Source: Escherichia coli (GTDB lineage: Bacteria; Pseudomonadota; Gammaproteobacteria; Enterobacterales; Enterobacteriaceae). From it: a stretch of 64,000 nucleotides of DNA. This document shows positions 2,841-48,821 of this stretch, piece by piece. Location: NCBI RefSeq assembly GCF_003334255.1, contig NZ_QOWU01000010.1; one strand, given 5' to 3'. The translations under genes and the position numbers were made by a program. The notes beneath the pieces were generated by a model. It searched no databases. It was not told the DNA's origin and saw only the letters and a program-made list of their open reading frames with translations. Each line of letters begins with the position of its first letter. The stretch's first letter is position 1.

Positions 2841-3056
2841 TTATTGGACATAGTGCCAGACGGACTTCGGTACCTGGCCGAGGTCAAACAAACGCCCGCC
2901 AGAAACCAGCTCTGCGCGACGGTGATCGGCAGCACGATACATATTGATCAGTTCCTGATCGTCCGTCAGGGTGTAATTAAGATGGTCGTAGAGTTTTTCC
3001 AGACTTTCGAGTGAACTGATTTTGCGAAATTTTAATAAGTAGTCCTGAACAGTCAT
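2841..3056 (-). CDS. cnu: Cnu (YdgT), Hha-family nucleoid-associated protein (71 aa)
   Basis: 71-aa [53 protein letters not shown]... matches Cnu/YdgT. Confidence 0.9.
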
Positions 3057-3328
3057 AAAAGGTCCATAAAATAATTAATACCAAAGGGGTAGGTATTATT
3101 AGTGATGATAAAATTTCACCAAAAGTGAACGCTTGTGTTATTACAATAATAAGAATGCACTGATGGCAAATATTCAGGGATGAAAAACTGCTCTGAAAAG
3201 AGTAACGCGCTTTACTATCCCTGACAATCACCAACAACATCGAACAAGATAATAAATTCCTGGTTTAATATCCGACAAGTGAAAACATGCACCCGGACGG
3301 GCAGCATGTCGCTCCACAAGTGCAGAGC

Positions 3329-3454
3329 TTACTTGTGTTGTACCGAAGCACTCTGTTCAGGTGGCTGATAGTTGTCAATGTGACTCGCCACGCCAAGAAG
3401 AATGACTGAAACGACAAGAACGATCCAACCTGTTAATTCAATAAGACGATTCAT
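3329..3454 (-). CDS. blr: Blr, small membrane protein (41 aa)
   Basis: Internal Met of the 66-aa ORF gives MNRLIELTGWIVLVVSVILLGVASHIDNYQPPEQSASVQHK (41 aa), matching Blr from memory. Confidence 0.75.
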   Translation of the reverse strand: MNRLIELTGWIVLVVSVILLGVASHIDNYQPPEQSASVQHK

Positions 3455-3696
3455 TACAGCCCACATCTCTCTTGATTGATCCATTAACTTCAGGGGGTAA
3501 ATGTTACTTAGCAATAATAGCTCCAGCAAGATTTTTACTGAGGTTTTTGCGATATTTAGCTTTTGTCGTTGGAAAATTCGCTATTTTTTTGACTTAAGTT
3601 AAACAACATCCCTTATTGCTGGCAGGTTATTAAACTGTTGAGCGTGGGTAAAGGATAGTGTCAAATAGCCATCATACTTCAATGAGAGGCAATGAC

Positions 3697-33964: not shown

Positions 33965-34091
33965 TTTTATCATTTAGTGTTTTTTGCTGTTTCATAATGT
34001 TTCAGGCTGTGCATTATGTTTTTGATTATCAACAGATTTGTGATTTTCCTTGTTCCAGCTTGTTTCACGTTGTAGCCCTTTGTGCAACGAT

Positions 34092-34115
34092 CGGTGTAGT
34101 CACTGGTGTAGTCAC
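34092..34115 (+). repeat. Tandem 10-bp repeat GGTGTAGTCA x2 (candidate integrase arm-type site) upstream of int
   Basis: CGGTGTAGTCACTGGTGTAGTCAC 25 bp upstream of the int start; a near-identical copy lies at 48725-48747 near the other island end. Confidence 0.5.
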
Positions 34116-34139
34116 TTTTTCGTAAAGAGGGGGTAAAAC

Positions 34140-35369
34140 GTGAGCAGAGCAATGAACAAACTGAGCGATACCTTGCTAAGGAAACTTCATGGTAAGCCAG
34201 CGGAGAAAAACACGTTTTATAGTGATGGCGGAAACCTGAGCGTGAAATATTTAACATCAGGGAAATTGACCTGGTATTTCACATACAGGGCCGGAACGGG
34301 AAGGGAGACACGACCCGAACGCATTAAGCTGGGAAGTTATCCTGATCTGAGCCTGAAAGCAGCCAGGGAAAAAGCCGCACAGTGTCGCACATGGCTGGCT
34401 GAGGGGAAAAATCCACGTCATGAGATGAATTACACCGTACAGGAAGCGTTAAAGCCCGTAACGGTTGGCGATGCGCTCACCTACTGGCTTGAGTATTACG
34501 TAAAGGAAAACCGCGTGGATTATATCGCCCTGAAAAGGCGACTTAATAATCACGTAATACAGCAGATTGGTGCTATGCCGCTGGATAAATGCGAGCTACG
34601 GCACTGGCTGGCCTGTTTTGACCAGGTGGCAAAGCGAACGCCTGTTACTGCCGGATTCGTGCTACAGGCGTGCAAACAGGCGCTTAAGTTCTGCCGTAGG
34701 CGGCGCTATGCAATCAGCAACGTTCTGGACGATCTGAACGTGGCGGACGTTGGGAAAAAACCGGATATAAGCGAACGTGTCTTAAGTAACAAAGAACTTG
34801 GCGAATTATTGCAGGCACTGGACAAAAAAATATTTTCCCCTTACTACGTCGCGTTAATCCGCCTCCTGATTGTCTTCGGAGCCAGGACGGTAGAACTGAG
34901 GCTATCGGAGATCGGGGAGTGGGATTTTACGGAAATGCTATGGACCGTTCCGAAGGAGCACAGCAAAACGAAGGTCGCAATATTCCGGCCCATACCGGAA
35001 GCGATCCTGCCGTTCGTCACGCAGCTGGTGGAGCAGAACAGGCACACGGGCTTATTGCTGGGGGAAGTGAAACAGGAGGCCAGCGTATCGCAGTATGGAA
35101 GATTAGCGCACAGGAGGCTTAATCATCCTCACTGGTCACTGCATGACATCCGGCGCACCTTTACAACCATGCTGAACGATTTAGGCGTTGATCCGCATGT
35201 CGTGGAGCAGCTTACAGGTCATCAGATGCCAGGAATGCAGCGAGTTTATAATCATTCCCGTTATCTGGATGCTAAACGCAATGCGCTGGATATGTGGATG
35301 GAGCGGTTAGGGATACTGGCGGGAACACATGAAAACGTAACCACGCTACCAGTAGCCAGAAGAAAATAA
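34140..35369 (+). CDS. int: Tyrosine integrase, P4-type (DUF4102 arm-binding N-terminal domain plus catalytic domain ending ...HDIRRTF...Y), 409 aa from GTG
   Basis: N-terminal KLSDTLLRKLHGKPAEKNTFYSDGGNLSVKYLTSGKLTWYF resembles the P4 integrase family N-terminus; C-terminal HxxRRT and downstream Tyr; GTG at 34140 has a GAGGGGG RBS (alternative ATG at 34152). Confidence 0.88.
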   Translation: MSRAMNKLSDTLLRKLHGKPAEKNTFYSDGGNLSVKYLTSGKLTWYFTYRAGTGRETRPERIKLGSYPDLSLKAAREKAAQCRTWLAEGKNPRHEMNYTVQEALKPVTVGDALTYWLEYYVKENRVDYIALKRRLNNHVIQQIGAMPLDKCELRHWLACFDQVAKRTPVTAGFVLQACKQALKFCRRRRYAISNVLDDLNVADVGKKPDISERVLSNKELGELLQALDKKIFSPYYVALIRLLIVFGARTVELRLSEIGEWDFTEMLWTVPKEHSKTKVAIFRPIPEAILPFVTQLVEQNRHTGLLLGEVKQEASVSQYGRLAHRRLNHPHWSLHDIRRTFTTMLNDLGVDPHVVEQLTGHQMPGMQRVYNHSRYLDAKRNALDMWMERLGILAGTHENVTTLPVARRK

Positions 35370-35743
35370 TTTTTTTCGTGTTTTTTCAGTATGCGCATAC
35401 TGGATATGCGAACAGATACAACATGCAACAATGAGCAACAATGCGGAACAACTACGAACAAGAGACGAAAAAGTGTACGGATTTATAAGTAGCTGATTTT
35501 TAATGTGTTACTGGTTTTTTATACACTAGCGAATCACTCTTTAAATAGCGAGAAAAAAGGCATGAAACAATATTTTATGCCTTTGTATTAACATGAATTT
35601 AAATGATTTTATCCTGATTATTCCTGTTTCTGTAAACCATACGACCTCAACATTTGCCAACTCTGAATCATCCTGACACAATCAGACACATCCCAACGCA
35701 ATAGAACACGAAATAACTCTTTAAGAAACGAAAGGGGGCAATA

Positions 35744-35932
35744 GTGTTAAGCACTGATCGGTTTATACGTGAAAAAGAATGCGAAAAGCTAACAGGCCTT
35801 AGCCGCTCATGCCGCTACCGCCTGGAAAAGGCCGGACAATTCCCATCACGTCGTAAACTTGGCGGTCGTTCCGTTGGCTGGTCTTTATCCGAGGTTCTGG
35901 CCTGGAAGGATAGCTGCAAGGCAGTTCATTAA
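35744..35932 (+). CDS. alpA: AlpA-family transcriptional regulator / excisionase-like HTH protein (62 aa, GTG start)
   Basis: LSTDRFIREKECEKLTGLSRSCRYRLEKAGQFPSRRKLGGRSVGWSLSEVLAWKDS fits the AlpA/Vis-type small HTH family; RBS AGGGGG 5 nt upstream. Confidence 0.75.
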   Translation: MLSTDRFIREKECEKLTGLSRSCRYRLEKAGQFPSRRKLGGRSVGWSLSEVLAWKDSCKAVH

Positions 35933-36432
35933 TCACGCTGGCGGCACACAGCCGCCACACATCAATCATCTGAACACAGAGCTATAACCATGAAGATTGA
36001 ATATACGCCAGAACGTGGGCGGGGATTCGTTCGCCCTGGTGAGACTGGAAAACCACAAAATTGGGGTTTTTCAGGCATAAAAAAAGCGGCCCCGAAATGG
36101 AGCCGCCTTTCTGAACAGATAACACGCTGCGCCGTTTGTGTGTGTGATCCCAAACATAAGCACGGGGATGATAGCCGCTATCAGGCTGGTGGGCAATGCA
36201 ATCAGTCTGGTTCAGTTCGTTGCCATACCTGCAATGAGCGCTTTTCCCTGTACTCTTTAAGGAATTGCTCAAGGGCAAAAGCACATGGCGCGAATCTTTC
36301 TGATTCATGCTCTATCTTTCTGCGCCGTCTTTTCCGTGCCGGTGATAATGTTTTGGTCAATTCTTTATCGGTCATTGTGTTGTCCTGCATAGCAATGCGC
36401 CGTAATACCTCACACCACGGCGCTGATAGTGA

Positions 36433-36738
36433 TTATTCTGATTCTTTGGCCTTGCGGCGCTGTAGTTCTTCACGAGCGATGGCGATAAGTTGCCCGAGTT
36501 CTTCCGTAGCTTTAATACCAATTTTTTCCACTTGCGCCAATGCATCGAGAGAAGAAATCAGAGGATTTTCACTGCTTCCTTCTGCCTGGCGGCGGGCGAT
36601 CTCCCCGCGCATGGCGGTTACTATGAATCCGGCGTTGCTTTCGCCGTCCAGTTTTACGGATTCCATGCCATCAAAAGCATCATGTGGGATACGAATTGAA
36701 ATCTGTTTTGATTTGTCGTTGATAGTGTTTTTTGCCAT
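36433..36738 (-). CDS. Hypothetical protein (101 aa), leftward-transcribed; candidate island regulator
   Basis: Start at Met 14 of the ORF, with AGGAGA RBS 7 nt upstream; the only clearly leftward gene in the island, divergent from the replication operon; function unknown. Confidence 0.5.
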   Translation of the reverse strand: MAKNTINDKSKQISIRIPHDAFDGMESVKLDGESNAGFIVTAMRGEIARRQAEGSSENPLISSLDALAQVEKIGIKATEELGQLIAIAREELQRRKAKESE

Positions 36739-36925
36739 GTGCATTCTCCTAAACAAAAGATGTGATTCAGTATACACAAAAAAGAATCACAAAAAACACT
36801 TGACCTGTGATTCAGTTGAATTTAATTTAAATCACACCTCAGTAAGAGGATGTAAACGACAACGCCCCGAACTGTTTGCGGCAGTAGCGGGGCGTCTAAC
36901 CAAACCGTTAACAGGAGTAACGATT

Positions 36926-37123
36926 ATGGCTGGAACACAGCATACCCCACGTCTGGCGCACACACAAACTGCCTTTGTGTGGCGTTTTCTGGCACTAAGT
37001 GCCGGAGAATCTCAAATCATCCACGTAACCGCCTGGACGGAACGCGAAGCGCGTAGCCGTTGCCCGTCCGGTTGTGTTGCTGTATTCGCCGCCCGTATTC
37101 GTCAGGGGGTGTGCCATGCCTGA
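36926..37123 (+). CDS. Small protein (65 aa), first gene of rightward operon; possibly Icd-like (function uncertain)
   Basis: ATG at 36926 preceded by AGGAG RBS (ACAGGAGTAACGATTATG); C-terminal part of the spurious long ORF 35990-37123; stop overlaps next gene start. Confidence 0.5.
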   Translation: MAGTQHTPRLAHTQTAFVWRFLALSAGESQIIHVTAWTEREARSRCPSGCVAVFAARIRQGVCHA

Positions 37124-37436
37124 CATGACCAATTACCAGTACCTGATTAATCCGCATTTTAACTGTGAGCATGATATTGCTAAAAAGGTTTATTCCGCTG
37201 CGGATGGGGCTACTGACAATATATCAATGGCTGTTTCGTCAATTGGTAGCCTGATGTGGTATGCGTCAGAAAATAAGGAATATGACGAAAAGGCCATGCG
37301 CATTGATATGGGTAATATTGGTTTGTTACTGGCAATGCTTGGACATTTTGATATTTCGTTACGGTGCACCATTGAAAATGCCACAGATGCATTAAATGCT
37401 ATAAAGAAAGCGAATACTGATTCAAATCGGGGATAA
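37116..37436 (+). CDS. Hypothetical protein (106 aa)
   Basis: ATG at 37116 overlapping the upstream stop (translational coupling); no recognisable motif. Confidence 0.5.
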   Translation: MPDMTNYQYLINPHFNCEHDIAKKVYSAADGATDNISMAVSSIGSLMWYASENKEYDEKAMRIDMGNIGLLLAMLGHFDISLRCTIENATDALNAIKKANTDSNRG

Positions 37437-37442
37437 ATAATC

Positions 37443-37742
37443 ATGAGAACGTATTTATCTGGCTTTACTGCCAGCGGTTATGCACACCCCAAAATTATCC
37501 CCGGCGCTATTTATCTGGATAAGAACGGTAACAGAGTAACGGTAAAAGAACTGATGTTTGACCGTGTGTATTTTATTCGTGATGGCTATTCATTTCATAG
37601 TTCGCTGAACGTGGAGATCTTTATTAGCAGATTCCGGCGGGAAATCCCGCTTTCCAGAAATAACCATGTGTCATGTATGGATGTTGATAAAAAACTACAG
37701 GAACTGAAAAACATGATTGCCGCGTGGAGAGAGCAGAAATGA
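37443..37742 (+). CDS. Hypothetical protein (99 aa)
   Basis: ORF directly upstream of and overlapping the primase gene start; no recognisable motif. Confidence 0.5.
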   Translation: MRTYLSGFTASGYAHPKIIPGAIYLDKNGNRVTVKELMFDRVYFIRDGYSFHSSLNVEIFISRFRREIPLSRNNHVSCMDVDKKLQELKNMIAAWREQK

Positions 37743-39556
37743 AAAAAGCGCCAAATTTAAAACACCAGCCGCGTGACAAAATGACGGAAGTCATCATTTT
37801 TGCGGGTAGTGATGCGTGGGCACATGCGAAGCAGTGGCAGGAACAGGACGGGCGACTGGCTGGCGATAACGTGCCACCTGTCTGGCTTGGAGAGCAACAA
37901 CTTGCCGAACTGGACAACCTGCAAATCGTACCGGACGGACGCTATCGCGTGCGTCTCTACCAGGCGGGGTTATTGCGTCCGGGGCTTGTTAATACCATCG
38001 GGCAGAAACTGGCAGCGGCAGGTGTCAGGGATGCTGATTATTACCCTGAAGGAATGCACAGCCAGAAACGGGAGAACTGGCGCGAATATCTGGAACGTGA
38101 GCGGGGAGAGCTGGCGGAAAAGAAAAAGGTAGTTGAACTGCCTGTAAAGAAAAAAGAGCGGGTAAAAGACGATAACGCTTCATCACTGGCGCTTAACCAG
38201 ATGGGAGCAAGTCAACGCGGCGAAGTTCTCCTGGCACATTATGGCGGTGAACTGGCGATTCATGCTGACTCTGACACTGTTCACTATTACAACGGCGTTG
38301 TATGGGAGCCAGTACAGGATAAAGAATTACAGCGAGCTATGGCGCAGATTTTCATTGATGCGGAGATCAGCTATTCGCAGAACGCCATTAAATCGGCGGT
38401 CGATACCATGAAGTTAAGTTTGCCTGTAATGGGGAATACAGCCCGTAACCTGATTGGATTCAGTAACGGTGTTTTTGATACCCGGACAGGCGATTTTCGG
38501 GAGCATAACAAAAACGACTGGTTGTTAATTGCCAGTGAATTACCTTTCAGCCCACCAGCAGAGGGGGAAACGCTGGCAACACATGCGCCGAATTTCTGGA
38601 AGTGGTTACGCCGTTCGGTGGCTGAGAATGACCGCAAGGCGGATCGCGTACTGGCTGCATTATTCATGGTGCTGGCGAACCGGTACGACTGGCAGTTATT
38701 CATTGAGGTAACAGGTCCAGGGGGAAGTGGTAAAAGCGTGATGGCGGAGATTTGCACCATGCTGGCGGGTAAGGCCAACACGGTATCGGCAAGCATGAAG
38801 GCGCTGGAAGATGCCAGGGAACGCGCGTTAGTGGTTGGCTTTTCGCTGATTATCATGCCGGATATGACCCGTTACGCTGGTGATGGCGCAGGAATTAAGG
38901 CCATTACAGGCGGTGACAAGGTGGCAATCGACCCGAAGCATAAAGCCCCCTACTCAACACGCATTCAGGCGGTAGTGTTGGCGGTGAACAATAACGCCAT
39001 GTCATTCAGTGACCGCAGCGGGGGGATTTCACGTCGTCGGGTGATATTCAATTTTTCGGAGGTTGTACCGGAAAACGAACGCGACCCCATGCTGGCAGAA
39101 AAAATAGAAGGAGAGCTGGCGGTTGTGATTCGCCACCTGCTTACTCGTTTTTCTGACCAGGACGCAGCTAAACGCCTGCTGTATGAGCAGCAGAAATCAG
39201 AAGAAGCTCTGGTGATAAAACGCGAGGGCGATTCGCTGGTGGACTTCTGCGGCTATCTCATGTCGTCGGTAATGTGTGATGGTCTGTTAGTGGGTAATGC
39301 CGAAATTATTCCGTTCAGTCCGCGCAGGTATCTTTATCACGCCTATCTGGCATATATGAGGGCACACGGATTCGGTAAACCTGTAACACTGACGCGCTTC
39401 GGTAAAGATATGCCGGGGGCAATGGCGGAATATGGCAGGGAGTATATGAAACGGAAAACGAAGCACGGTTTGCGTTCAAACGTGACACTGACGGAGGAAT
39501 CAGAAGACTGGATGCCATCATGTGTATCGGTCACTAATGACGATAGCAAAAATTAA
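37739..39556 (+). CDS. Primase / replication initiator with P4/D5-type NTPase domain (605 aa)
   Basis: Walker A VTGPGGSGKS and downstream Walker B-like hydrophobic-acidic stretch in the C-terminal half (P4-family primase C-terminal domain architecture); GGAGAG RBS before ATG 37739; followed by an iteron array. Confidence 0.75.
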   Translation: MKKAPNLKHQPRDKMTEVIIFAGSDAWAHAKQWQEQDGRLAGDNVPPVWLGEQQLAELDNLQIVPDGRYRVRLYQAGLLRPGLVNTIGQKLAAAGVRDADYYPEGMHSQKRENWREYLERERGELAEKKKVVELPVKKKERVKDDNASSLALNQMGASQRGEVLLAHYGGELAIHADSDTVHYYNGVVWEPVQDKELQRAMAQIFIDAEISYSQNAIKSAVDTMKLSLPVMGNTARNLIGFSNGVFDTRTGDFREHNKNDWLLIASELPFSPPAEGETLATHAPNFWKWLRRSVAENDRKADRVLAALFMVLANRYDWQLFIEVTGPGGSGKSVMAEICTMLAGKANTVSASMKALEDARERALVVGFSLIIMPDMTRYAGDGAGIKAITGGDKVAIDPKHKAPYSTRIQAVVLAVNNNAMSFSDRSGGISRRRVIFNFSEVVPENERDPMLAEKIEGELAVVIRHLLTRFSDQDAAKRLLYEQQKSEEALVIKREGDSLVDFCGYLMSSVMCDGLLVGNAEIIPFSPRRYLYHAYLAYMRAHGFGKPVTLTRFGKDMPGAMAEYGREYMKRKTKHGLRSNVTLTEESEDWMPSCVSVTNDDSKN

Positions 39557-39569
39557 ACTTATGGAATAA

Positions 39570-39792
39570 CTGTTCACCACTGTTCACCCTGTCATAAATA
39601 TCTTTTGTATCAGTATGTTATAGGGTGAACAGTTATTTATGAACTGTTCACCAAACTATTCACTGTTCACCTTTTTGATTGTTTATTGAGCTTCAAGGGT
39701 GAACAGTGGTGAATAGTTGGTGAATAGTTTTTGTGAAACTGTTCACCCCTTAACATTATGAATTAAAAGATAAAATATCAAAAGGTGAACAG
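39570..39792. repeat. Iteron array (at least 8 copies of CTGTTCACC / GGTGAACAG in both orientations): candidate island replication origin
   Basis: Copies at 39570, 39580, 39624(inv), 39644, 39663, 39698(inv), 39739, 39784(inv) plus GGTGAATAG variants at 39708 and 39718, in AT-rich DNA just after the primase gene. Confidence 0.65.
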
Positions 39793-39843
39793 GTGAAGGG
39801 TTAAAACGCAAAAATTTTAATTTACTGCTGTGAGATAAAGCCT

Positions 39844-40089
39844 ATGACAGCGAAGCACACAAAAAAATCACAATCGCACGCCCTTGATTTGACGGAACAC
39901 TGGTTAAGGGTGTCGATAAAAATCATCGACCGCAACGCCGGGGAAGGATATGCGAAAGCACATCCCGAACTGATTAGCTCATTCATGACAACGGCAGCTG
40001 CAAACTTTGCCACGCTGACAGAACGGGAGATTGCCGAAGCGGAACAGGTGACAACCATCAACGTTAAAACCGGAGAGCAGACAGCATGA
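39844..40089 (+). CDS. Hypothetical protein (81 aa)
   Basis: ORF immediately upstream of and overlapping the ssb start (ATGA overlap); weak RBS. Confidence 0.4.
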   Translation: MTAKHTKKSQSHALDLTEHWLRVSIKIIDRNAGEGYAKAHPELISSFMTTAAANFATLTEREIAEAEQVTTINVKTGEQTA

Positions 40090-40496
40090 CAGCACAGATA
40101 GCAGCTTACGGGCGGCTGGTGGACGACCCGCAGGTAAAACAGACCAGTAAGGGCACACCGATGACGCTGGCGCGTATGGCGGTATCGTTGCCATGTAGTC
40201 AGGCGCAGGATGGGCAGGCGACGTTATGGCTATCGGTCATCGCATTTGGTAAGCAGGCCGACTTCCTGGCTAAACATCAAAAAGGCGACGTTGCCAGCGT
40301 ATCCGGCACGATGCAGGTCAGCCAGTGGACCGGACAGAACGGGGAAACGCGGCAGGGTTATCAGGTTATTGCAGACAGCGTAATCAGTGCCCGTGCGGCA
40401 CGTCCTGGCGGGAACAGACGCAAAACCACAGGCACACAGGGTAATCAGCCACCAGCGGGAGGCGATGACCCTTACGGTGACGGTATTCCGTTCTGA
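40086..40496 (+). CDS. ssb: Single-stranded DNA-binding protein (136 aa)
   Basis: OB-fold-like N-terminal region, Gly/Pro/Gln-rich linker and acidic C-terminal tail ...DDPYGDGIPF, the hallmark SSB protein-interaction tail. Confidence 0.75.
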   Translation: MTAQIAAYGRLVDDPQVKQTSKGTPMTLARMAVSLPCSQAQDGQATLWLSVIAFGKQADFLAKHQKGDVASVSGTMQVSQWTGQNGETRQGYQVIADSVISARAARPGGNRRKTTGTQGNQPPAGGDDPYGDGIPF

Positions 40497-40506
40497 GGGG
40501 GTGGCG

Positions 40507-40779
40507 ATGGTACATGACCGCATAGCGGAAGAACTCGAGGCGAAAGGCTTTTACCGGAGGGCGGCGGCGCGATGGGGTGAAGTCATGCTGCTGGTGGAGA
40601 CAGACAAGGAACGGCATCAGGTTACGATGCGACGGCTGGAATGTTCCAGGAAGGCACAGAAGCCACCGGAGCCGCCGGATAACTTCGGAGACCTGAGAAA
40701 GGCAGTAGATCGCACTTATGCTGAAATGGGTATAGATGGTGTAAGCGATGAAATATGGCGTAATTACCCAGACAGCTAA
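40507..40779 (+). CDS. PerC-family-like small transcriptional activator (90 aa)
   Basis: MVHDRIAEELEAKGFYRRAAARWGEVM... resembles the conserved PerC motif (LEAxGxxRRAAxRW) as I remember it; GAGGGGG RBS. Confidence 0.5.
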   Translation: MVHDRIAEELEAKGFYRRAAARWGEVMLLVETDKERHQVTMRRLECSRKAQKPPEPPDNFGDLRKAVDRTYAEMGIDGVSDEIWRNYPDS

Positions 40780-40784
40780 TCAAC

Positions 40785-40808
40785 AGCCGGAGAAATCCGG
40801 CTTTTTTT
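40785..40808 (+). terminator. Intrinsic terminator
   Basis: AGCCGGAGAAATCCGGCT followed by TTTTTTT. Confidence 0.65.
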
Positions 40809-40903
40809 GCACCAGTTGAAACGGTATGGCGCATTACCGGGTTTTCGTCACGGTCAGGCATAGTTACTATCTGAAACAAACAGACACAACAGAGGAAAAA
40901 ACA

Positions 40904-41128
40904 ATGCCGATGAAATTTGATGAGATATTAAAACAGCGTGATAAATACCATGCTGACAACATGGAGACGATGAGCATCAATGATTACCGCGCATTCCTGG
41001 AGACGGGCGCACTGATTGAAAAGGATCAGCATGGTTTTGTGAGATGTGCTCTGTCCGGTGAAATGCTGGCGGTAAATCCTGAACAGATAGATGCATTGAT
41101 AGAATTTCTGAAAGGGATCAGGGACTGA
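40904..41128 (+). CDS. Hypothetical protein (74 aa)
   Basis: Start at internal Met with GAGGAAAAAACA-ATG RBS; followed by a terminator almost identical to the one at 40785. Confidence 0.45.
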   Translation: MPMKFDEILKQRDKYHADNMETMSINDYRAFLETGALIEKDQHGFVRCALSGEMLAVNPEQIDALIEFLKGIRD

Positions 41129-41138
41129 GCACGCATAC

Positions 41139-41160
41139 AGCCGGAGCAATCCGGCTTTTT
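41139..41160 (+). terminator. Intrinsic terminator (near-duplicate of 40785-40808)
   Basis: AGCCGGAGCAATCCGGCT followed by TTTTT. Confidence 0.65.
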
Positions 41161-41420
41161 GTCATTTTTTGTAAATTATTTGTTCGTGGTTGTTCCACGT
41201 TGTTCACTGACAGGATCGGCATATTTTACCCGAACTGAATCATGAGTATTCTCGCCCGTGGTGCCAGGACGCTGGGGCCACTTTCCCGCCTGTTAATGTG
41301 CTCGCCAATATTCATTACCAGGCGGGAAAACGATCGGTGCGATTGCTGATTTCCTTATGAAAAACGGTTGAGTTTTTGCCGCGTCCTGGAGTTCCTTACT
41401 TAACCCCAGGACTTTTTTTT

Positions 41421-42578
41421 ATGCCGAGAATAATCGAATTACGCCAGCAGAAAACCGCCATTAAAAATCAGATGCGCGACATGCTGGAGAACGCGGAAAA
41501 AGAAAACCGCAGCCTTAACGATGCAGAGGGCGCAAAATTTGACGAATTACGCGCTAAAGCTGAATCCCTCGATAAAGACATTTCCCGCCTTGAAGCCATT
41601 GCAGACGAAGAGCGCAGCAAGCCAGGTAAAAGCAGCCAGACCACTGACCCGGCAGAACTCCGCAACTACATCCTGACAGGTGAAACCCGCGCATTAAGTA
41701 CAGGCGTTCCCGCTGATGGTGGTTATACCGTTATCCCCGAACTGAACACCGAAATCATGCGAATGCTGACGGATGAATCCACCATGCGCCGCATCTGTAC
41801 CGTGAAGAAAATCAGCAGCAACGAGTTTAAGCAGCTTGTTTCCGCTGGCGGTGCGACCGTTAACCACGGTGAAGAGGGTAAGACACGCGAACAGACCAGC
41901 ACCCCGCAGATTAACGAGGTGAGCATTAAGCTGTATCCGGTCTATGCGTACCCGCGCACCACACAGGAAATCGTGGATTTTTCCGATGTGGACATCCTTT
42001 CATGGCTGACGGGTGAGATTGGCGACACCTTCACGGAAACCGAAGAAAGCGATCTGGTTGTGGGCGACGGTGACAAAAAAGCAAAAGGTTTTTTATCCGT
42101 ACCCCGTGCAGAGAAGAACGACAAAGAGCGTGATTTTGGTACGTTGCAGGTAATTAAACCTTCCGAATCTCTGGCGTGGACATCTGCGGACCCGCTGATC
42201 GACCTGAAATTTGCATTACGTAAAAAATACCGCAAAAACGCGGTCTGGGTGGTTAACTCCACGACGGCGGCAAAACTTCAGAAGGTGAAGAACGCGAACG
42301 GTGATTACATCTGGCGCGACCGTTTACAGGCGGGTGATCCTGATACGTTGCTGGGCCTTCCGGTCGAATATCTGGAGTTTATGCCTGATAACGTTATTGC
42401 CCTGGGTGACTTCAAACGCGGTTACTACATTGTTGATCACGAAACAGGTGTTCGCACCAGACCGGACAACCTCACAGAGCCGGGCTTCATCAAAATTTTC
42501 ACGCAGAAATATTTAGGCGGTGGCGTGGTGGATTCGAACGCGATCAAGATTCTGGAACTGCCACAGGACGACGATTAA
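41421..42578 (+). CDS. Major capsid protein, HK97 fold, with N-terminal coiled-coil scaffolding (delta) domain (385 aa from ATG 41421)
   Basis: N-terminal coiled-coil region (IELRQQKTAIKNQMRDMLENAEKENRSLNDAEGAKFDELRAKAESLDKDISRLEAIADEE) followed by a region typical of HK97-family capsid proteins; ORF track start 41376 is a TTG extension; strong terminator follows. Confidence 0.85.
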   Translation: MPRIIELRQQKTAIKNQMRDMLENAEKENRSLNDAEGAKFDELRAKAESLDKDISRLEAIADEERSKPGKSSQTTDPAELRNYILTGETRALSTGVPADGGYTVIPELNTEIMRMLTDESTMRRICTVKKISSNEFKQLVSAGGATVNHGEEGKTREQTSTPQINEVSIKLYPVYAYPRTTQEIVDFSDVDILSWLTGEIGDTFTETEESDLVVGDGDKKAKGFLSVPRAEKNDKERDFGTLQVIKPSESLAWTSADPLIDLKFALRKKYRKNAVWVVNSTTAAKLQKVKNANGDYIWRDRLQAGDPDTLLGLPVEYLEFMPDNVIALGDFKRGYYIVDHETGVRTRPDNLTEPGFIKIFTQKYLGGGVVDSNAIKILELPQDDD

Positions 42579-42590
42579 CAGCATACAGAA

Positions 42591-42620
42591 GGGGCTTAAA
42601 AGCCCCTTTAGTGTTTTATG
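42591..42620 (+). terminator. Intrinsic terminator after major capsid gene
   Basis: GGGGCTT-AA-AAGCCCC hairpin followed by a T-rich tract. Confidence 0.65.
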
Positions 42621-42632
42621 GGTGAAAAAATT

Positions 42633-43190
42633 ATGAAGAGTATGGAAATCCGGTCATCGGAAATCACCACCAGCGCCAGCAACACGCTTACAGGCTACGT
42701 TGTTCGCTGGGATAAGCTTTCAGAGCTGCTATGGGGGGAGTTTTACGAAAAATTCCAGCGGGGAGCGTTTACTGAATGGCTTGCGGCGGGTAATGACGTT
42801 CGCGGCCTGTATGAGCATGACCACAGCATGTTGCTGGGGCGTACCCGTTCCGGCACGCTGAAACTGGAAGAGGACGAAACAGGGTTACGCTTTGAACTGA
42901 CCCCACCGGATACCAGTACAGGGCGCGACGTTATCGAACTGGTTAAGCGTGGGGACATCTCGGGGATGAGCTTTGGCTTTCGCTCCCGTAAGGATGTATG
43001 GGATACCACAACAGATCCATGCGTGCGCACCGTGCTGGTGGCGGAACTGTACGAAATTACCGTTACATCGGTACCGGCTTACCCCGATTCCGGCGTGGAG
43101 CTGGCCCGCCGTTCCCTGTATGAGCAGCACCCCGAAAAAATGCCGCGTGCGGATAATCGCCGCTGGTGGGTGGATTTAGCGGGGGTGTGA
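42633..43190 (+). CDS. Prohead maturation protease, HK97 family (S78-like), about 186 aa
   Basis: Sequence typical of HK97-type prohead proteases (GYVVRWDKLS..., YEHDHSMLLGRTRSGTL, GDISGMSFGF); start ambiguous among ATG 42618/42633/42642. Confidence 0.8.
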   Translation: MKSMEIRSSEITTSASNTLTGYVVRWDKLSELLWGEFYEKFQRGAFTEWLAAGNDVRGLYEHDHSMLLGRTRSGTLKLEEDETGLRFELTPPDTSTGRDVIELVKRGDISGMSFGFRSRKDVWDTTTDPCVRTVLVAELYEITVTSVPAYPDSGVELARRSLYEQHPEKMPRADNRRWWVDLAGV

Positions 43191-43191
43191 T

Positions 43192-44403
43192 ATGTGGCTT
43201 TTCAGAAGAAAAAAAGAGCAGCGCAGCATGACGCTTGATGAATTTATGGCGCTGGCTGGCACATCGAACACGGGGGCGGGTGAGTACGTATCATCGGGGA
43301 CAGCGGAATCACTGCCCGCCGTCATGAACGCCGTGACGGTCATCTCTGAGGCGGTGGCTACCATGCCGTGTTACCTGTACCTGGTACGCAATGAGAAGGG
43401 GAAGGAGGCCCGCGAGTGGCTTGATTCTCATCCGGTCGATCACATCCTCAACGAGCGCCCGAACGCGTGGCAGACTCCCTACCAGTTTAAGCGAATGATG
43501 ATCCGCCACTGCCTGTTAAACGGTAATGCTTATGCGGTGATTCAGTGGGGGCGTGATGGTTTTCCGGTGGCTTTACATCCTTACCCGCCGCAGTCGGTGA
43601 ACGTGGAGCAGACAGGCGAACACAACTGGCGCTACTGCATCACTGACGCCTACACCGGAAACACCCGCAACTATTTACCGTGGGAGGTTCTCCACCTTCG
43701 TTACTCCACGGATGACGGTTTTATGGGGCGCTCACCTGTAACCATCTGCCGCGAATCGCTGGGGCTTGGGCTGGCCCAACAACGCCACGGCGCGAGCGTG
43801 ATGCGTGATGGCATGATGGCGGCAGGGGTTATCACGTCAGGCGAATGGCTGGACGGCGTGAAGGGCAAACAGGCATTAGCCGCACTGGAACGCTACAAAG
43901 GGGCCAGAAACGCCGGAAAAACGCCCATCCTTGAAGGGGGTATGAGCTATCAGCAGCTGGGCATGAGTAATCAGGATGCTGAATGGCTGGCCTCCCGTCG
44001 CTTCACCATTGAAGACATCGCCCGAATGTTCAACGTCTCGCCGATTTTTCTGCAGGAATACAGCAACAGCACCTACAGCAATTTCAGCGAGGCAAGCCGC
44101 GCATTTCTCACCATGACAATGCGCCCGTGGCTGGCGAACTTTGAGCAGCAGATAAAAAACGCCCTGCTGGTGGCCTCGCCTGTACCTGGTATCCGGTATC
44201 AGGTGGAGTTTGACAGCGCGGACCTGTTACGGGCCACACCTGGCGAACGCTTTGCCACCTATGAACGCGGCATCAAATCCGGCGTTATGTGCCCGAACGA
44301 AGCCCGCGAACGTGAAGGGCTGTCCCCGCGTGATGGTGGTGATGAGTTCAGCCAGGCATGGAAACAGGAAGTAAAAATCAGCGAGGGAGAAAAACCGGAA
44401 TGA
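43192..44403 (+). CDS. Portal protein, HK97 family (403 aa)
   Basis: Size, position and conserved portal-like core (…LLNGNAYAVIQWGRDG…, …ILEGGMSYQQLGMSNQDAEWL…); immediately follows the protease with 1-nt spacing. Confidence 0.8.
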   Translation: MWLFRRKKEQRSMTLDEFMALAGTSNTGAGEYVSSGTAESLPAVMNAVTVISEAVATMPCYLYLVRNEKGKEAREWLDSHPVDHILNERPNAWQTPYQFKRMMIRHCLLNGNAYAVIQWGRDGFPVALHPYPPQSVNVEQTGEHNWRYCITDAYTGNTRNYLPWEVLHLRYSTDDGFMGRSPVTICRESLGLGLAQQRHGASVMRDGMMAAGVITSGEWLDGVKGKQALAALERYKGARNAGKTPILEGGMSYQQLGMSNQDAEWLASRRFTIEDIARMFNVSPIFLQEYSNSTYSNFSEASRAFLTMTMRPWLANFEQQIKNALLVASPVPGIRYQVEFDSADLLRATPGERFATYERGIKSGVMCPNEAREREGLSPRDGGDEFSQAWKQEVKISEGEKPE

Positions 44404-44738
44404 ACATAGGGCGACTGCGTGACAGGGTAACGATTCAGACCCTGAAACAGACCAGGGATATAACCGGCGAAATACTCGAAACGTGGGAGGACGGTCACAC
44501 ACTCTGGGCAAGCGTGAACATGATCAGCAGCAAGGAGGCCATTTCATCGGGTGCAGAGCTGGCGATTGGTACCGTAAGGATCTGGATACGGTACCGGAAG
44601 GACATCAATGCCACCAGCCGGATAAAGGTCAGTACGGGGCCGCTGGCGGGGCGTGTACTGAATATCATCGGGCAGCCGCTGCCGGATGCCGCCAGGACAC
44701 GCCTTGAAATTCTTTGTCGTGAGGGCGCGGAAAAATGA
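44400..44738 (+). CDS. Head closure / head-tail adaptor protein (112 aa)
   Basis: MNIGRLRDRVTIQTLKQTRD... resembles the head-tail joining family; ATGA overlap with portal stop; GAGGGAGA RBS. Confidence 0.7.
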   Translation: MNIGRLRDRVTIQTLKQTRDITGEILETWEDGHTLWASVNMISSKEAISSGAELAIGTVRIWIRYRKDINATSRIKVSTGPLAGRVLNIIGQPLPDAARTRLEILCREGAEK

Positions 44739-45031
44739 CAGAAGAACTTATCACCCTGGAAGAAGTGAAACTCCATTGCCGCATCGATGGCGACGAGGAA
44801 GACCAGTTAATCAGCGGATACATCGCCGCATCGCTTGAGGCGTGCCAGATACACATAGGCAGGCGCTTTGATGACGGGCTGGAGTTCACGCCAGCCATAA
44901 AGATTGGCTGCATGATGTTTATCGCTCACCTGTATGAAAATCGCCAGATTGTCGCGGATAACGCAAAAACACGCGTACCCATGACGATTGGTGCACTCTG
45001 GACGGCTTACCGTGATGTGGGGGTGTACTGA
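44735..45031 (+). CDS. gp6-like head-tail connector protein (98 aa)
   Basis: MTEELITLEEVKLHCRIDGDEEDQLISGYIAASLEACQIHIG... resembles the gp6-like connector family N-terminus. Confidence 0.7.
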   Translation: MTEELITLEEVKLHCRIDGDEEDQLISGYIAASLEACQIHIGRRFDDGLEFTPAIKIGCMMFIAHLYENRQIVADNAKTRVPMTIGALWTAYRDVGVY

Positions 45032-45471
45032 TGCCGTGGCAACCATTAAGACGATGCACAGAACCAGGCTGTAACAGGCGCGTGAAGTCCGGCAAGTGTG
45101 AGGAGCACAGGCGGGCGGCATGGCGTGCAGAGGATGCCAGACGAGGACACCGCCGCGCGCGTGGGTACTCCAGACAGTGGGACAAATACCGCGCCATGTA
45201 TCTGAGTAAAAACCCGTTATGCGTGCGATGCCTTGAGAAGGGGATATATACGCCCGCCGTGGTGGTGGATCACATTATCCCGATTAATGGCGGTGATGAT
45301 GTTCTCTTCTGGCCCGAATGGAACCATCAGCCATTGTGCCAGGCGTGCCATAACCAGAAAACGAAATGGCTTGATCCGGCAACAAAAAGCAAGCGTGCCG
45401 CAGGTGGATTTCGTGAAGAGGAAGAACGGGCCGCTAACCGCAATAACTGGATGTATGACGCTGATGAATGA
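45031..45471 (+). CDS. HNH endonuclease (packaging-associated), 146 aa
   Basis: Cys pairs plus VVDHIIPINGGDD...NHQPLCQACHNQK (HNH motif); located immediately upstream of TerS as in HK97-like cos packaging modules. Confidence 0.85.
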   Translation: MPWQPLRRCTEPGCNRRVKSGKCEEHRRAAWRAEDARRGHRRARGYSRQWDKYRAMYLSKNPLCVRCLEKGIYTPAVVVDHIIPINGGDDVLFWPEWNHQPLCQACHNQKTKWLDPATKSKRAAGGFREEEERAANRNNWMYDADE

Positions 45472-45759
45472 GCGGGAACAAAACCGCCTTATCCGTGGAC
45501 TTATAAGGCAGCGTGACGCATGGAAGACACAGGAAACAGGGCATAAAGATAAAGCGTCAGGACGCGCAGAACGCATCACAGCGAAGCGATTAACCGACCG
45601 TGACCGCGAGGTTATGGAATGTTTCCGCAATCGCTGATGAGGCTGTATGACGGGGTGGGGGGCGTTTTCAGGACAAACCCGACCCCGCCGGGCACCGACC
45701 GCCTCCTCAAATTTTTATGCACGGGAATTTTTTGAAAAATAATCTGACGAAAAATAAGC

Positions 45760-46116
45760 ATGGCAAGACCACCGAAAGCCCCCGCCTACCTGGATGACAT
45801 CGCCGTGAAGCAGTGGCGGGAAAAATCGCGGCAGCTTGCGGAACGGGGAGACCTGACCCCCGCCGACTGGAGCAATCTGGAACTGTATTGTGTCAACTAC
45901 TCCATTTACCGGAAAGCCGTCGCAGACCTTGCGGCGCGCGGGTTCAGCATTGTTAACAGTCAGGGCGGCGAGAGCAGAAACCCCGCATTAAGCGCGAAAT
46001 CAGACGCTGAAAGGGTGATGATAAAAATGGCCTCCTTGCTCGGTTTTGACCCGATAAGCCGCCGTAAAAACCCACCGGAAACAGAAGAAGAGGACGAGCT
46101 TGACCGCCTGGAATAA
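45760..46116 (+). CDS. Terminase small subunit, P27 family (118 aa)
   Basis: Resembles P27-type TerS (AVKQWREKSRQLAERGDLTPADWSNLELYCVNYSIYRKA); overlaps TerL start. Confidence 0.8.
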   Translation: MARPPKAPAYLDDIAVKQWREKSRQLAERGDLTPADWSNLELYCVNYSIYRKAVADLAARGFSIVNSQGGESRNPALSAKSDAERVMIKMASLLGFDPISRRKNPPETEEEDELDRLE

Positions 46117-47761
46117 GTACGCAGAAGACGTAAAAACGGGCAAAATTCAGGCCTGTAAACGGTTAAAACAGGCCGTTAAACGGTACTTTTCGGACCTTAA
46201 AAGCCCCCTTTACACGTTCGATCGTGAGGTTGTGGATCGGTTTATTGCCTTTTCCAGGGTGTGCCCGCACGTAAAAGGGCCGATGCGTGGCAGACCCATT
46301 GAGCTGGAGCCGTGGCAGCAGTTCGCCTTTGCGTGCATCCTCGGCTTTAAGGTTAAGGCCACCGGACGGCGCAAATATACGAGCGCCTTTATCGAAGTGC
46401 CGCGCAAAAATGCTAAATCAACGACCGCCGCGATTCTGGCTAACTGGTTTCTGATTATGGAGAACGGTCAGCAGGATATTTACACCGCAGCGGTGAGCCG
46501 TGACCAGGCGAGGATCGTATTTGATGATGCGCGTCAGATGTGCATTTTATCCCGACCGTTACGCAGGCGGGTGAATATTCAGGCGCATAAGGTGATACAC
46601 CCGAAAACCAACAGCCTGTTAAAGCCGCTGGCAGCAAAAGCGGCAACTATCGAGGGCACAAACCCCAGTCTTTCTATCGTGGACGAATACCACCTACACC
46701 CCGACAACGGCGTATATTCTGCGCTTGAACTGGGGATGGGGGCACGTCCCGAAGGGCTGTTATTTGCCATTACCACATCGGGAAGTAACGTCGTTTCAGC
46801 CTGTAAGCAGCATTATGATTATTGCTGCCAGATCCTGGACGGCGAAGAGGTTAACGAATCGCTTTTTGTGCTGATTTACGAACTGGACGACGAAAACGAG
46901 GTTGATGATCCGGAGATGTGGATAAAGGCGAACCCTAATATCGATGTTTCCGTGGATCGTGAAAAACTGGCCTCAACCATTCAGAAAGCGCGGGGTATTC
47001 CGTCGCAATGGGTGGAGATGATGACAAAGCGATTTAATATCTGGTGTCAGGGGACTACCCCGTGGATGGGTAATGGTGCATGGGCTGAGTGTGCCGGAAC
47101 GTTCACGGAGGAAGATTTACACGGTCAGGAGTGTTACGCGGGGCTGGACTTATCATCAACCAGCGATATTTCCAGCGTGTGCTATGCCTTTCCGGTCGGT
47201 AAAACCATTATGATGATTTCCCGTCATTATCTGCCGGAGTTCCAGCTACAGAACCCCGCCAATAAAAACCGCGCTGTCTATCGTCAGTGGGCTAAAGCAG
47301 GCTGGATACGCACAACGCCTGGCGACTGCATTGATTACGACCGGATCAGAGATGACATCATGCAGGACGCGGAGAAATTTAATATCAGGCTGGTGGGCTT
47401 TGATACGTGGAACGCCACGCATCTCAGAACGCAATTACAGGGGGCAGGTTTTGAGGTGGAGCCGTTCCCGCAAACCTACCTCAGATTCAGTCCGGCGGCG
47501 AAATCGTTCGAAGTTTTTGTTAACCGCAGGGTGATTGTGCATCGTGGCGATCCGGTGTTGTCCTGGTCGATGAGTAACGTCGTGATGCAGAGTGACGCGA
47601 ACGCCAATATCAAGCCGAACAAGAAAAAATCACCGAACAAGATAGACCCGAGCGTGGCGGCGCTGATGGCGTTTGGTACATTCCAGGCAGAGCATGAGGA
47701 TTTTGCTTTTGATATAAGCGACAGCCACCGCCAGAAACTGGAAGAATTTAGCGGGGTGTAA
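46100..47761 (+). CDS. Terminase large subunit (553 aa; apparent TTG start)
   Basis: ATPase and nuclease domains in typical TerL arrangement; no in-frame ATG/GTG near the 5' end, TTG at 46100 preceded by GAGGA. Confidence 0.85.
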   Translation: MTAWNKYAEDVKTGKIQACKRLKQAVKRYFSDLKSPLYTFDREVVDRFIAFSRVCPHVKGPMRGRPIELEPWQQFAFACILGFKVKATGRRKYTSAFIEVPRKNAKSTTAAILANWFLIMENGQQDIYTAAVSRDQARIVFDDARQMCILSRPLRRRVNIQAHKVIHPKTNSLLKPLAAKAATIEGTNPSLSIVDEYHLHPDNGVYSALELGMGARPEGLLFAITTSGSNVVSACKQHYDYCCQILDGEEVNESLFVLIYELDDENEVDDPEMWIKANPNIDVSVDREKLASTIQKARGIPSQWVEMMTKRFNIWCQGTTPWMGNGAWAECAGTFTEEDLHGQECYAGLDLSSTSDISSVCYAFPVGKTIMMISRHYLPEFQLQNPANKNRAVYRQWAKAGWIRTTPGDCIDYDRIRDDIMQDAEKFNIRLVGFDTWNATHLRTQLQGAGFEVEPFPQTYLRFSPAAKSFEVFVNRRVIVHRGDPVLSWSMSNVVMQSDANANIKPNKKKSPNKIDPSVAALMAFGTFQAEHEDFAFDISDSHRQKLEEFSGV

Positions 47762-47774
47762 TGAGGTCAGCAGC

Positions 47775-48056
47775 ATGACAGAAGCCGAAATAACGGGATT
47801 AATCCGCCGCGTTGCCGGAATCAGCCAGCAGGCTGACGAACAGGCCACGCAGCCGGACAGCGTGACAGCCGAAAACTATGCGCGTGTTGTTGCTGAGGTG
47901 ATGCGCCGTGATGGTATAGAACTTAATGGCGTGGATATGCGCAACATACGAACCAGAGTTCTTGAGTTGCTGGCCTACCGTCGCCGCGTGGAGATGTATC
48001 GGGAGAAGGAGAAAATAACGTACCACTGGAAGAAGCCGGAGCGGTTGCGGCGGTAA
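47775..48056 (+). CDS. Hypothetical protein (93 aa), last gene of island
   Basis: ATG 47775 with GAGG RBS 8 nt upstream; no recognisable motif. Confidence 0.5.
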   Translation: MTEAEITGLIRRVAGISQQADEQATQPDSVTAENYARVVAEVMRRDGIELNGVDMRNIRTRVLELLAYRRRVEMYREKEKITYHWKKPERLRR

Positions 48057-48349
48057 CTGGTTGATATTCCCGACGGACCAAAAATGGGTGGCTACATCCC
48101 TCGCTTCTGAGGACTGTTAACAAGCTGCCTGAAAGACAGTCACAAACTACGAAATTTTCGCAGTTTAATTAATGATCAGCTTAATCGCTAACCCGCTGAT
48201 ATTTTCGGAAACCTCAATTTGAGGAAGTCGGCGCGGTAACTCGCTGAACTTTAAGCAAAGTGCAAAATTGCGCTTGCTGAATAATCATTATGATTACGCA
48301 GATGATTAAGGAATGACCGAAGGCGGAAATTCGCCTGTGGTTAATGGGG

Positions 48350-48462
48350 GAGTTGCAGATCTGCAACTCGACCATGAAACTACGGAAACTACCCGTAGTT
48401 TGGGTAGTAAGAGTAACACCCAGATTTTGGGTCTTACTCGTGATACCCAAATTTGGGGTATC
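48350..48462. repeat. Cluster of perfect and near-perfect palindromes in the island right arm
   Basis: Perfect 20-bp palindrome GAGTTGCAGATCTGCAACTC (48350-48369); AAACTACGG/CCGTAGTTT stem (48376-48400); nested AGTAAGA...ACCCA...TGGGT...TCTTACT (48406-48439); GATACCCAAATTTGGGGTATC (48442-48462). Confidence 0.6.
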
Positions 48463-48724
48463 AGTGGCAACCATAACGACTTTCGTTACGGTTGATGCTT
48501 TTACCCCATTGGGGGAAAGGTATTACGATAATCATAACACCTACCGAACAGGTAAAGCCCACCAGCCTGATTAACGTTTAACCGGAAAAAAATTCCGGTA
48601 GGTGGGGATCCCCATATCGACATTAACGCCCCTCATGAATTGGTGCGCTTCCCCCTGGAAAGATGATCCGCCTGTATATTTCTTGTGTCTATTTGTTCCA
48701 CGTTGTTTCATACAGTGCACCGAA

Positions 48725-48747
48725 CGGTGTAGTCACTGGTGTAGTCA
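48725..48747 (+). repeat. Tandem 10-bp repeat GGTGTAGTCA x2 (second copy of candidate arm-type site)
   Basis: CGGTGTAGTCACTGGTGTAGTCA, same orientation as 34092-34115; preceded by TTGTTCCACGTTGTT, which recurs at 41190. Confidence 0.5.
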
Positions 48748-48821
48748 TTTTGCGATTTTTGGCACTTTTTGCGGTGAAAATTATTTAATTAAATCAACGT
48801 GTTATGTGAAATAAGTTATAT

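Follow-up and report, generated by a model that had tools for sequence, protein, structure and literature searches.

Introduction

Phage-inducible chromosomal islands of the capsid-forming kind (cf-PICIs) are recognised as islands of 10–18 kb with integrase, regulation and replication modules (bioRxiv 10.1101/2025.02.11.637232). For EcCIEDL933 and KpCIDSM30104, induction by a helper phage, formation of small capsids of their own, and dependence on the helper for tails only have been shown experimentally (bioRxiv 10.1101/2022.09.08.507074, 10.1101/2025.02.11.637232). cf-PICI DNA has cohesive ends, and concatemers joined through cohesive ends have been reported, including for KpCIDSM30104 (bioRxiv 10.1101/2025.02.11.637232); packaging of cf-PICI DNA and packaging of helper DNA are reported to be mutually exclusive (bioRxiv 10.1101/2022.09.08.507074). 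Packaging modules that resemble those of cf-PICIs and have mapped DNA ends are known from phages. HK97-type modules, made up of an HNH endonuclease and the small and large terminase subunits (TerS and TerL), are cohesive-end (cos) systems; HK97 DNA has 10-nt 3′ overhangs, and its minimal TerS site spans positions +15 to +29, with an essential A-tract (PMC9410871, PMC11331095). In HK97, TerS is known to bind a specific site immediately downstream of the nick, and cleavage by TerL is stimulated by the HNH protein (PMC11331095, PMC9410871). Interrupting the A-tract of HK97 with two G:C pairs abolishes TerS binding. Run-off sequencing of SfI virion DNA left a 10-nt gap, TGCCCGCCCC (PMC3636060). 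Here we analyse a 64-kb stretch of Escherichia coli DNA (the window, to which all coordinates refer) that carries a 14.6-kb EcCIEDL933-like cf-PICI within tqsA. We conclude, with a probability of roughly 0.82, that positions 45652–45740, upstream of the island's terS gene, are its cos site, of the HNH-dependent HK97/SfI type and working by the mechanism proposed below.

Results

The segment upstream of terS aligns with mapped cos sites

The site lies between the HNH gene and terS, with terL adjoining, the placement expected of a cos site, and we read it as the following elements.

45652–45674, + strand: G-box GGGGTGGGGGG followed by CGTTTTCAGGAC; upstream cos element, at about −54 to −44 from the predicted top-strand nick
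45675–45689, + strand: variable spacer between G-box and cut site; its sequence is free to vary among E. coli variants and genera, and its length is kept
45690–45695, + strand: left flank GGGCAC, the predicted last base-paired nucleotides of the right genome end; consensus AGG[AC]AC over 171 distinct contexts
45696–45705, + strand: predicted cohesive end CGACCGCCTC, a 10-nt 3′ overhang equivalent to cosN, placed by column alignment with three references
45706–45740, + strand: right block CTCAAATTTTTATGCACGGGAATTTTTTGAAAAAT, read as the first bases of the left genome end from its conservation and from the start of a linear contig
45720–45734 (+15 to +29), + strand: predicted TerS site CACGGGAATTTTTTG, by analogy with the HK97 minimal site; the invariant T-tract is 45728–45734

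In a multiple alignment, 45696–45705 shares its columns with the SfI gap and with the terminal 10 nt of the HK97 genome, and HK97 base 1 falls on 45706. The HK97 genome starts with GTTTGAATTTAACGCTAACCCGATTTTTTTAG and ends with ...GGGCAGGGGGGGGGATCAAATC...ATGACCGCCGCCAAA; the joined ends of SfV and the junction of ST64B read ...GAGGGGAGGGGCGGGTCAAATC...GGAC TGCCCGCCCC (A/C)TCG..TTTTTATACCCGCGAAAAAT...ATG of terS. ACGC at +12 to +15 and a T-tract from +23/24 to +29/30 are in register between the island and HK97. At the distance of the island G-box, SfV and ST64B have GGGGAGGGGCGGG, and HK97 has a G-run at −56 to −43. A G-run, a C-rich 10-mer and a T/A-tract are therefore found in register with mapped cos sites, and the HNH, TerS and TerL proteins encoded beside the island site are all homologous to terminase-module proteins of phages with mapped cos ends.

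The statistical strength of this match differed among the phages. Local alignment of the window with ST64B gave a z-score of 8, and the score was reached by none of 2000 dinucleotide shuffles; the corresponding pairwise alignment with SfV was not significant (z 1.6). We also built a profile from an alignment of cf-PICI sequences, one from each of 26 loci in 24 genera (Erwinia and Xenorhabdus are represented twice each), and scanned it over the complete, circularised genomes of HK97 and ST64B. In both genomes the top match was the phage's own cos junction, with an E-value of 2e-4 for ST64B and 0.069 for HK97, where the next best match had an E-value of 1.9. On HK97, the profile places the cf-PICI 10-mer on positions −10 to −1, coinciding with the genome ends base for base.

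Linear DNA of relatives ends at the site

A pattern scan of IMG/VR found a single contig with the right block at position 2. This contig, IMGVR_UViG_3300022664_000095 (15,518 bp), is a complete linear cf-PICI with terS, terL, int, primase, capsid, protease and portal among its genes. It starts with CTCAAATTTTTACGCACGG (longer: CTCAAATTTTTACGCACGGTG) and ends with ...GCAAGGCAC (longer: ...GGGGTGGGGGAGGTTTTCAGGACAAAACCCAAGCCGCAAGGCAC), and its two stored pieces overlap identically. Exactly 10 nt separate GG[AC]AC from CTCAAATT in 57/57 distinct relatives whose sequence is continuous at this point, these 10 nt being CACCCGCCCC, CGCCCGCCCC, CGCCTGCCCC and others; at both of its ends, the contig lacks exactly the 10-mer predicted from SfI and HK97. 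Loss of the 10-mer from both ends is the expected outcome when 3′ overhangs are blunted by end repair; 5′ overhangs would have been filled in and hence duplicated.

A second break was found in GenBank record LR881103.1 (vB_KppS-Ant), which is 100% identical to the island of Klebsiella pneumoniae DSM 30104 except for 69 missing nt over the site. The record ends with ...TTTTCAGGAC and resumes 22 nt before terS, so the site is bracketed. The particle DNA behind this assembly came from growth on K. pneumoniae DSM 30104 and was sequenced as a Nextera XT library (PMC8006926); the break in the assembly is a line of evidence independent of the IMG/VR contig. Unique ends at the site, with 10-nt 3′ overhangs, were thus seen in relatives and not in the window island itself. 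Two IMG/VR scans for Klebsiella/Enterobacter-type variants gave no second end-anchored contig, and in a metagenome scan with the 16-mer TCAAATTTTTAYGCAC, 116 of the 120 matches listed were due to chance, and no listed match was at the end of a contig. Loci of IMG/VR anchored on TerS are almost all prophage regions of isolate genomes, and are therefore uninformative about ends.

The site is a conserved non-coding element of cf-PICIs

To avoid circularity, we fetched relatives by the TerS protein alone; the 80 loci obtained belong to Enterobacterales, Aeromonas, Orbaceae and Pasteurellaceae. At least 76 of these share one layout upstream of terS: the G-box GGGGTGGGGG, then TTTCAGGAC or AAAAATGAC, a variable spacer of fixed length, GG[AC]AC, the C-rich 10-mer, and CTCAAATTTTTAYGCACGG..T7GAAAATAA. 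In the 26-sequence alignment, whose TerS proteins have a mean identity of 76%, the mean majority-base frequency of the 49-nt core at 45692–45740 was 0.885, as compared with 0.877 for the best 49-nt stretch of terS; the frequencies at codon positions 1, 2 and 3 of terS were 0.844, 0.876 and 0.589. The G-box core (45654–45661) had a majority frequency of at least 0.85. By contrast, the value fell to 0.60 at 45675–45691, the least conserved part of the region, and to 0.63 in the last 19 nt before the ATG. Since the core outscores terS stretches while the spacer and the segment before the ATG vary freely, the block is a non-coding element under strong selection, and is more than an anomaly of composition. 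We conclude that it is the conserved element of this family, that it is homologous to mapped cos sites, and that the DNA of relatives ends there.

Across 171 distinct cos contexts, the family consensus of the 10-mer is C-R-M-C-C-G-C-C-Y-C, and the window 10-mer is the third commonest form (20/171). Among E. coli variants, the predicted cohesive end varies at 45699 and 45704, with the forms CGACCGCCTC, CGAACGCCTC and CGACCGCCCC; the ends of different variants would therefore anneal imperfectly with each other. The G-run of the variants, GGGGTGGGGG(G)n, is also of variable length. A 401-bp stretch covering the site (45400–45800) was found in 489 of 5,426 complete E. coli genomes, every time in the chromosome; O157:H7 genomes carry it at 99% identity to the window, and E. 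coli strain G1/2 is 100% identical in the region.

In three Pasteurellaceae loci (Lonepinella, 'Macca' and Rodentibacter) the motif at first seemed to be absent. This impression was rejected: the cos block lies 170–260 nt upstream of terS, as compared with the usual ~20–55 nt, because sequence has been inserted between cos and terS. Several genomes carry the TerS/cos module in multiple copies, with four to five each in Xenorhabdus mauleonii, X. innexi, X. miraniensis and X. kozodoii, and seven in the assembly of Pasteurellaceae bacterium 'Macca'.

Some relatives have been deposited as phages. LR881103.1 was published as a filamentous single-stranded DNA phage of a novel genus, and carries genes for capsid, portal, HNH, TerS and TerL. 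Judged by its sequence, it is the cf-PICI KpCIDSM30104 of K. pneumoniae DSM 30104/ATCC 13883, and the labels 'Escherichia phage' and 'tail length tape measure protein' (2036–4333) in the record look wrong. Pasteurella phages Pmp8 (OR544139.1) and Pmp7 (OR544138.1), of 10.7 and 15.3 kb, have the cf-PICI gene set and share the cos blocks GGTGGGGGGG ... CCGCCCCCCC ... TCAAATTTTTACGCAAGGCAATTTTTT; they are probably satellites, not phages. OR845787.1 ('Escherichia phage ECO95 1-6-1', 1,621 bp), a contig of low coverage, comes from wastewater phages prepared on E. coli O157:H7 ATCC 43895. It carries a segment with HNH, small open reading frame (ORF), cos and TerS that has only 76% identity to the window; the contig is from a different cf-PICI lineage, and its sequence is continuous over cos.

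Proposed mechanism

By analogy with HK97, packaging would follow excision and replication of the island. The P27-family TerS would bind the A/T-rich block at about 45720–45734, to the right of the cut and equivalent to HK97 +15 to +29, and the HK97-like TerL, aided by the gp74-like HNH protein, would nick the top strand at 45705/45706 and the bottom strand at 45695/45696. These nicks would leave 10-nt 3′ overhangs with the top-strand sequence CGACCGCCTC. Packaging would start with CTCAAATT at 45706, run through terS, terL and the att junction, continue through int, the capsid genes, the HNH gene and the small ORF, and stop at the next cos, which the motor would approach by way of the G-box. 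This element lies about 50 nt upstream of the cut and may act at this last step, in a role like that of cosQ or in positioning the nuclease. The packaged unit would be the whole island between two cos cuts. The predicted elements of this scheme are TerS binding, the assignment of the nicks to these enzymes, the part that the G-box plays, and where exactly the E. coli variant is nicked.

Weighing the cos assignment against other explanations

Several observations weigh against the cos assignment. The exact ends come from one metagenome contig, of a relative whose TerS is ~84% identical, and the vB_KppS-Ant assembly brackets the site only to 69 nt. The E. coli-type block is internal in 82/82 IMG/VR contigs, with no end-anchored contig for this variant. 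The profile match to HK97 is weak (E 0.069), and pairwise alignment of the window with the HK97 cos is not significant (z 0.1). TerS binding at the A/T block is argued by analogy with HK97, whose TerS is of another sequence family. Lastly, the window 10-mer differs from the commonest family variants at 2–3 positions, and the nicks could therefore be shifted in the E. coli variant. A reading in which the same region is cos, and the E. coli variant is nicked elsewhere (for example in the extra C-rich box CCCGACCCCGCC at 45678–45689, or nearer the G-box) or has overhangs of another length or polarity, draws on these 10-mer differences, on the exclusively internal position of the E. coli-type block, and on the box itself, which together with the G-box makes up a 10-nt inverted repeat and which most relatives lack. 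However, the window retains the conserved flanks GG[AC]AC and CTCAAATT, the 10 nt between them and the downstream block, the window 10-mer is a common one in the family, and the spacer that holds the extra box is the least conserved part of the region; we consider shifted nicks quite unlikely.

Readings in which the block is not a cos site fare worse. In favour of a region that mainly controls transcription or translation of terS and terL, as promoter, terminator or operator, with packaging starting elsewhere, the block is A/T-rich, highly conserved and directly upstream of terS, and a TTGAAA hexamer is present. Yet searches of the region gave neither a sigma-70-like promoter on the + strand nor a terminator-like site; it likewise has no Rfam match, folds no better than shuffles (z −0.26) and shows no hairpin covariation; the genes form a single co-directional operon with overlapping genes, and a control function leaves both the in-register cos match and the contig ends at the site unexplained. 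We regard this explanation as very improbable. Recognition sites next to terS are typical of pac phages too, and a pac site here would mean that packaging starts nearby and proceeds by headful, so that the DNA would be permuted, with redundant termini. In the linear relative, the ends are unique, with 10 nt missing between them and nothing repeated; HNH-TerS-TerL modules of this type belong to cos packaging (PMC9410871, PMC11331095); and cf-PICI DNA shows cohesive-end concatemers (bioRxiv 10.1101/2025.02.11.637232), all of which makes headful packaging barely credible. A lambda-type cos does not fit either: neither end of the relative's contig carries the 10-mer, and the island TerS is of the P27 family. 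The assignment of 45652–45740 as an HNH-dependent cos site of the HK97/SfI type is the one that we retain, as far as evidence from sequence reaches.

Composition of the site

The initial annotation had proposed the gap at 45472–45759, between the HNH gene and terS of an HK97-like cos-type triad, as a candidate cos region, had noted in it a GC-rich tract at about 45651–45705, atypical for the surrounding DNA, and had suggested that a distinct cos would explain selective packaging of the island. The composition is indeed atypical: the tract has 74.5% GC, as compared with a mean of 50.4% (standard deviation 7.7%) for 55-nt windows, and only 25 of ~63,900 such windows (the top 0.04%) reach this value. 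The two strings quoted for it are located at 45652–45664 (GGGGTGGGGGGCG) and 45679–45706 (CCGACCCCGCCGGGCACCGACCGCCTCC). The tract contains the sole 13-mer in the 64 kb with at least 11 G or at least 11 C. Both conserved motifs of the site, the G-box included, occur once in the window, where shuffles predict 0. The cut is placed at the right edge of the tract (45696–45705), and the A/T-rich block beyond it is also part of the signal. The placement between HNH and terS is borne out by the in-register alignment to the SfI and HK97 cos ends and by the breaks in the DNA of relatives, and the cos-type triad by the relationships of the three proteins given below.

Two structural candidates were tried and rejected. 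For an RNA element, there was no Rfam match even at E-values up to 1, and single-strand folding was at z −0.26 relative to shuffles. For a hairpin between G-box and spacer, which look complementary by eye in some lineages, the pairs that RNAalifold returned between G-box and C-box were all invariant G:C, with no covariation.

A small conserved gene lies in the HNH–TerS gap

The initial annotation had described the 288 bp between the HNH and TerS genes as non-coding. Its coordinates are correct, as the HNH gene ends at 45471 and terS starts at 45760. The gap is not wholly non-coding, however, because 60% of it is a conserved annotated gene at 45464–45637; the true intergenic region before terS is 45638–45759 (122 bp). 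The genes of the packaging module are as follows.

45031–45471, + strand: HNH endonuclease gene (packaging accessory nuclease); PHROG 144, E 8e-45
45464–45637, + strand: small conserved gene, 57 amino acids (aa); PHROG 3173 end to end, E 7.5e-37; RefSeq WP_000174068.1
45760–46116, + strand: terS, P27-family small terminase; TIGR01558, 60.1 bits (cutoff 45.6); PHROG 83
46100–47761, + strand: terL, HK97-type large terminase; PHROG 9, E 1.8e-179; PDB 6Z6D (HK97 TerL), E 1.9e-42

The small gene encodes a basic protein of 57–60 aa; PGAP places its start at 45455 (60 aa), and the start overlaps the HNH stop (ATGAATGA). The frame and a C-terminal RDRE..FRNR motif are retained in at least 15 genera, and in the Enterobacterales cf-PICIs that conserve the gene the stop always lies ~15 nt ahead of the G-box. 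The gene is missing from Xenorhabdus, Photorhabdus, Citrobacter and Pasteurellaceae elements. We found no Pfam or NCBIfam family match for the protein, and tblastn gave no homologues in bona fide phages. It could be a packaging accessory.

The HNH protein is 39% identical to HK97 gp74 (E 2e-19) and 37% identical to the SfV HNH protein. The island TerS is 36% identical to TerS of SfV, SfI and ST64B; among phages whose ends are known, it is closest to SfV, SfI, SfII, SfIV and ST64B (36% identity), and no relative in the PDB was found by sequence.

The island has the cf-PICI architecture

The boundaries of the island follow from direct repeats and gene content.

34043–48751, + strand: whole island from attL to attR, 14,633 bp, splitting tqsA

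The att sites are imperfect 76-nt direct repeats at 34043–34118 and 48676–48751, with the core CGGTGTAGTCACTGGTGTAGTCA. All genes are on the + strand, in the order integrase, small regulators, primase, single-stranded DNA-binding protein, major capsid, prohead protease, portal, head closure, head-tail adaptor, HNH, small ORF, TerS, TerL and a 93-aa ORF. This layout is the published cf-PICI architecture, with EcCIEDL933 as the prototype (bioRxiv 10.1101/2022.09.08.507074). With 14,633 bp between the att repeats and integrase, regulation and replication modules, the island belongs to the cf-PICIs; no tail or lysis genes were found in it (RefSeq annotation and PHROGs for both statements). Just upstream of the capsid gene, two near-identical terminator-like hairpins, ACAGCCGGAG(A/C)AATCCGGCTTTTT, lie 354 nt apart at 40783–40806 and 41137–41160 and bracket a 100-aa ORF (40826–41128).

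Discussion

The site described here is of a well-known kind; its value is practical, in coordinates placed to the base and a diagnostic motif. We found the location of the cf-PICI cos in none of the papers searched, though cos packaging is stated; the journal version of the founding paper lay outside the search. Our understanding of HK97-type packaging is unchanged. Location to the base offers a concrete and testable explanation for the lack of crossing between island packaging and helper packaging. The EcCIEDL933 helpers HK106 and HK446 have the HK97 cos at 96–99% identity, while the island differs from it in the 10-mer, in the bases of the TerS site and in TerS itself, which fits the idea in the initial annotation of a distinct island cos. 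The island terminase should cut only island DNA, since its TerS is of another family and its site has other recognition bases than the HK97-type helper cos. The difference is consistent with separate, mutually exclusive packaging. The site also defines a cassette of ~90 bp with which any plasmid should become packageable into capsids of cf-PICIs, and a DNA signature (G-box, 10-mer and CTCAAATTTTTAYGCAC...T7) by which genomes and viromes can be searched for cf-PICIs and their ends.

A more far-reaching possibility is that the cf-PICI cos is a near-universal signal, interchangeable across genera, and further that the PHROG 3173 protein is a specificity factor for cos or for the terminase. The basis for near-universality is the conservation of the cos core, which exceeds that of the terminase and extends over Enterobacterales, Aeromonas, Orbaceae and Pasteurellaceae. 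We think the proposal as a whole unlikely. If it were true, any induced cf-PICI could package a co-resident or incoming cf-PICI, and the Enterobacterales-specific 57-aa protein would separate island from helper packaging, as Rpp does in classical PICIs.

Comparison with known systems

The cos sites of SfI, SfV and ST64B share with the island the order HNH-cos-terS, a P27-family TerS, and the succession of G-box, spacer, C-rich 10-mer and T-rich block (...TTTTTAT.C.CG.GAA). They differ in the 10-mer (TGCCCGCCCC for the SfI type, CGACCGCCTC for the island) and in the bases of the T-rich block (GCACGGGAATTTTTT against ACCCGCGAAAAAT). These phages are complete temperate phages of 37–40 kb with Mu-like tails, whereas the island is a 14.6-kb satellite with no tail genes, and they lack the small ORF that the island has between HNH and cos.

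HK97 shares with the island the involvement of an HNH protein (gp74 in HK97), an HK97-type TerL and a 10-nt 3′ overhang, that of the island being predicted. Also shared are a G-run ~55–43 nt upstream of the nick, ACGC at +12 to +15, and a T-tract at +24 to +30 that overlaps the TerS site at +15 to +29. By contrast, the overhang is CGCCGCCAAA in HK97 and CGACCGCCTC in the island, the bases contacted in HK97 (T16 and G:C21) differ in the island, and HK97 has ~320 bp from HNH to the genome end. The island TerS has no detectable sequence similarity to HK97 gp1.

With lambda, the likeness is one of functional logic only: a nicking site, a TerS element on the side packaged first and an upstream termination element. 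Lambda has 12-nt 5′ overhangs, uses gpNu1/gpA together with integration host factor and no HNH protein, and its cos has no sequence similarity to that of the island. In P4, cos-type Staphylococcus aureus pathogenicity islands and Rpp-PICIs, as in the island, a packaging signal borne by the satellite decides which DNA enters capsids. Classical satellites copy or retarget the helper cos and use the helper terminase (bioRxiv 10.1101/2022.09.08.507074), whereas the island has a terminase, an HNH protein and a cos of its own.

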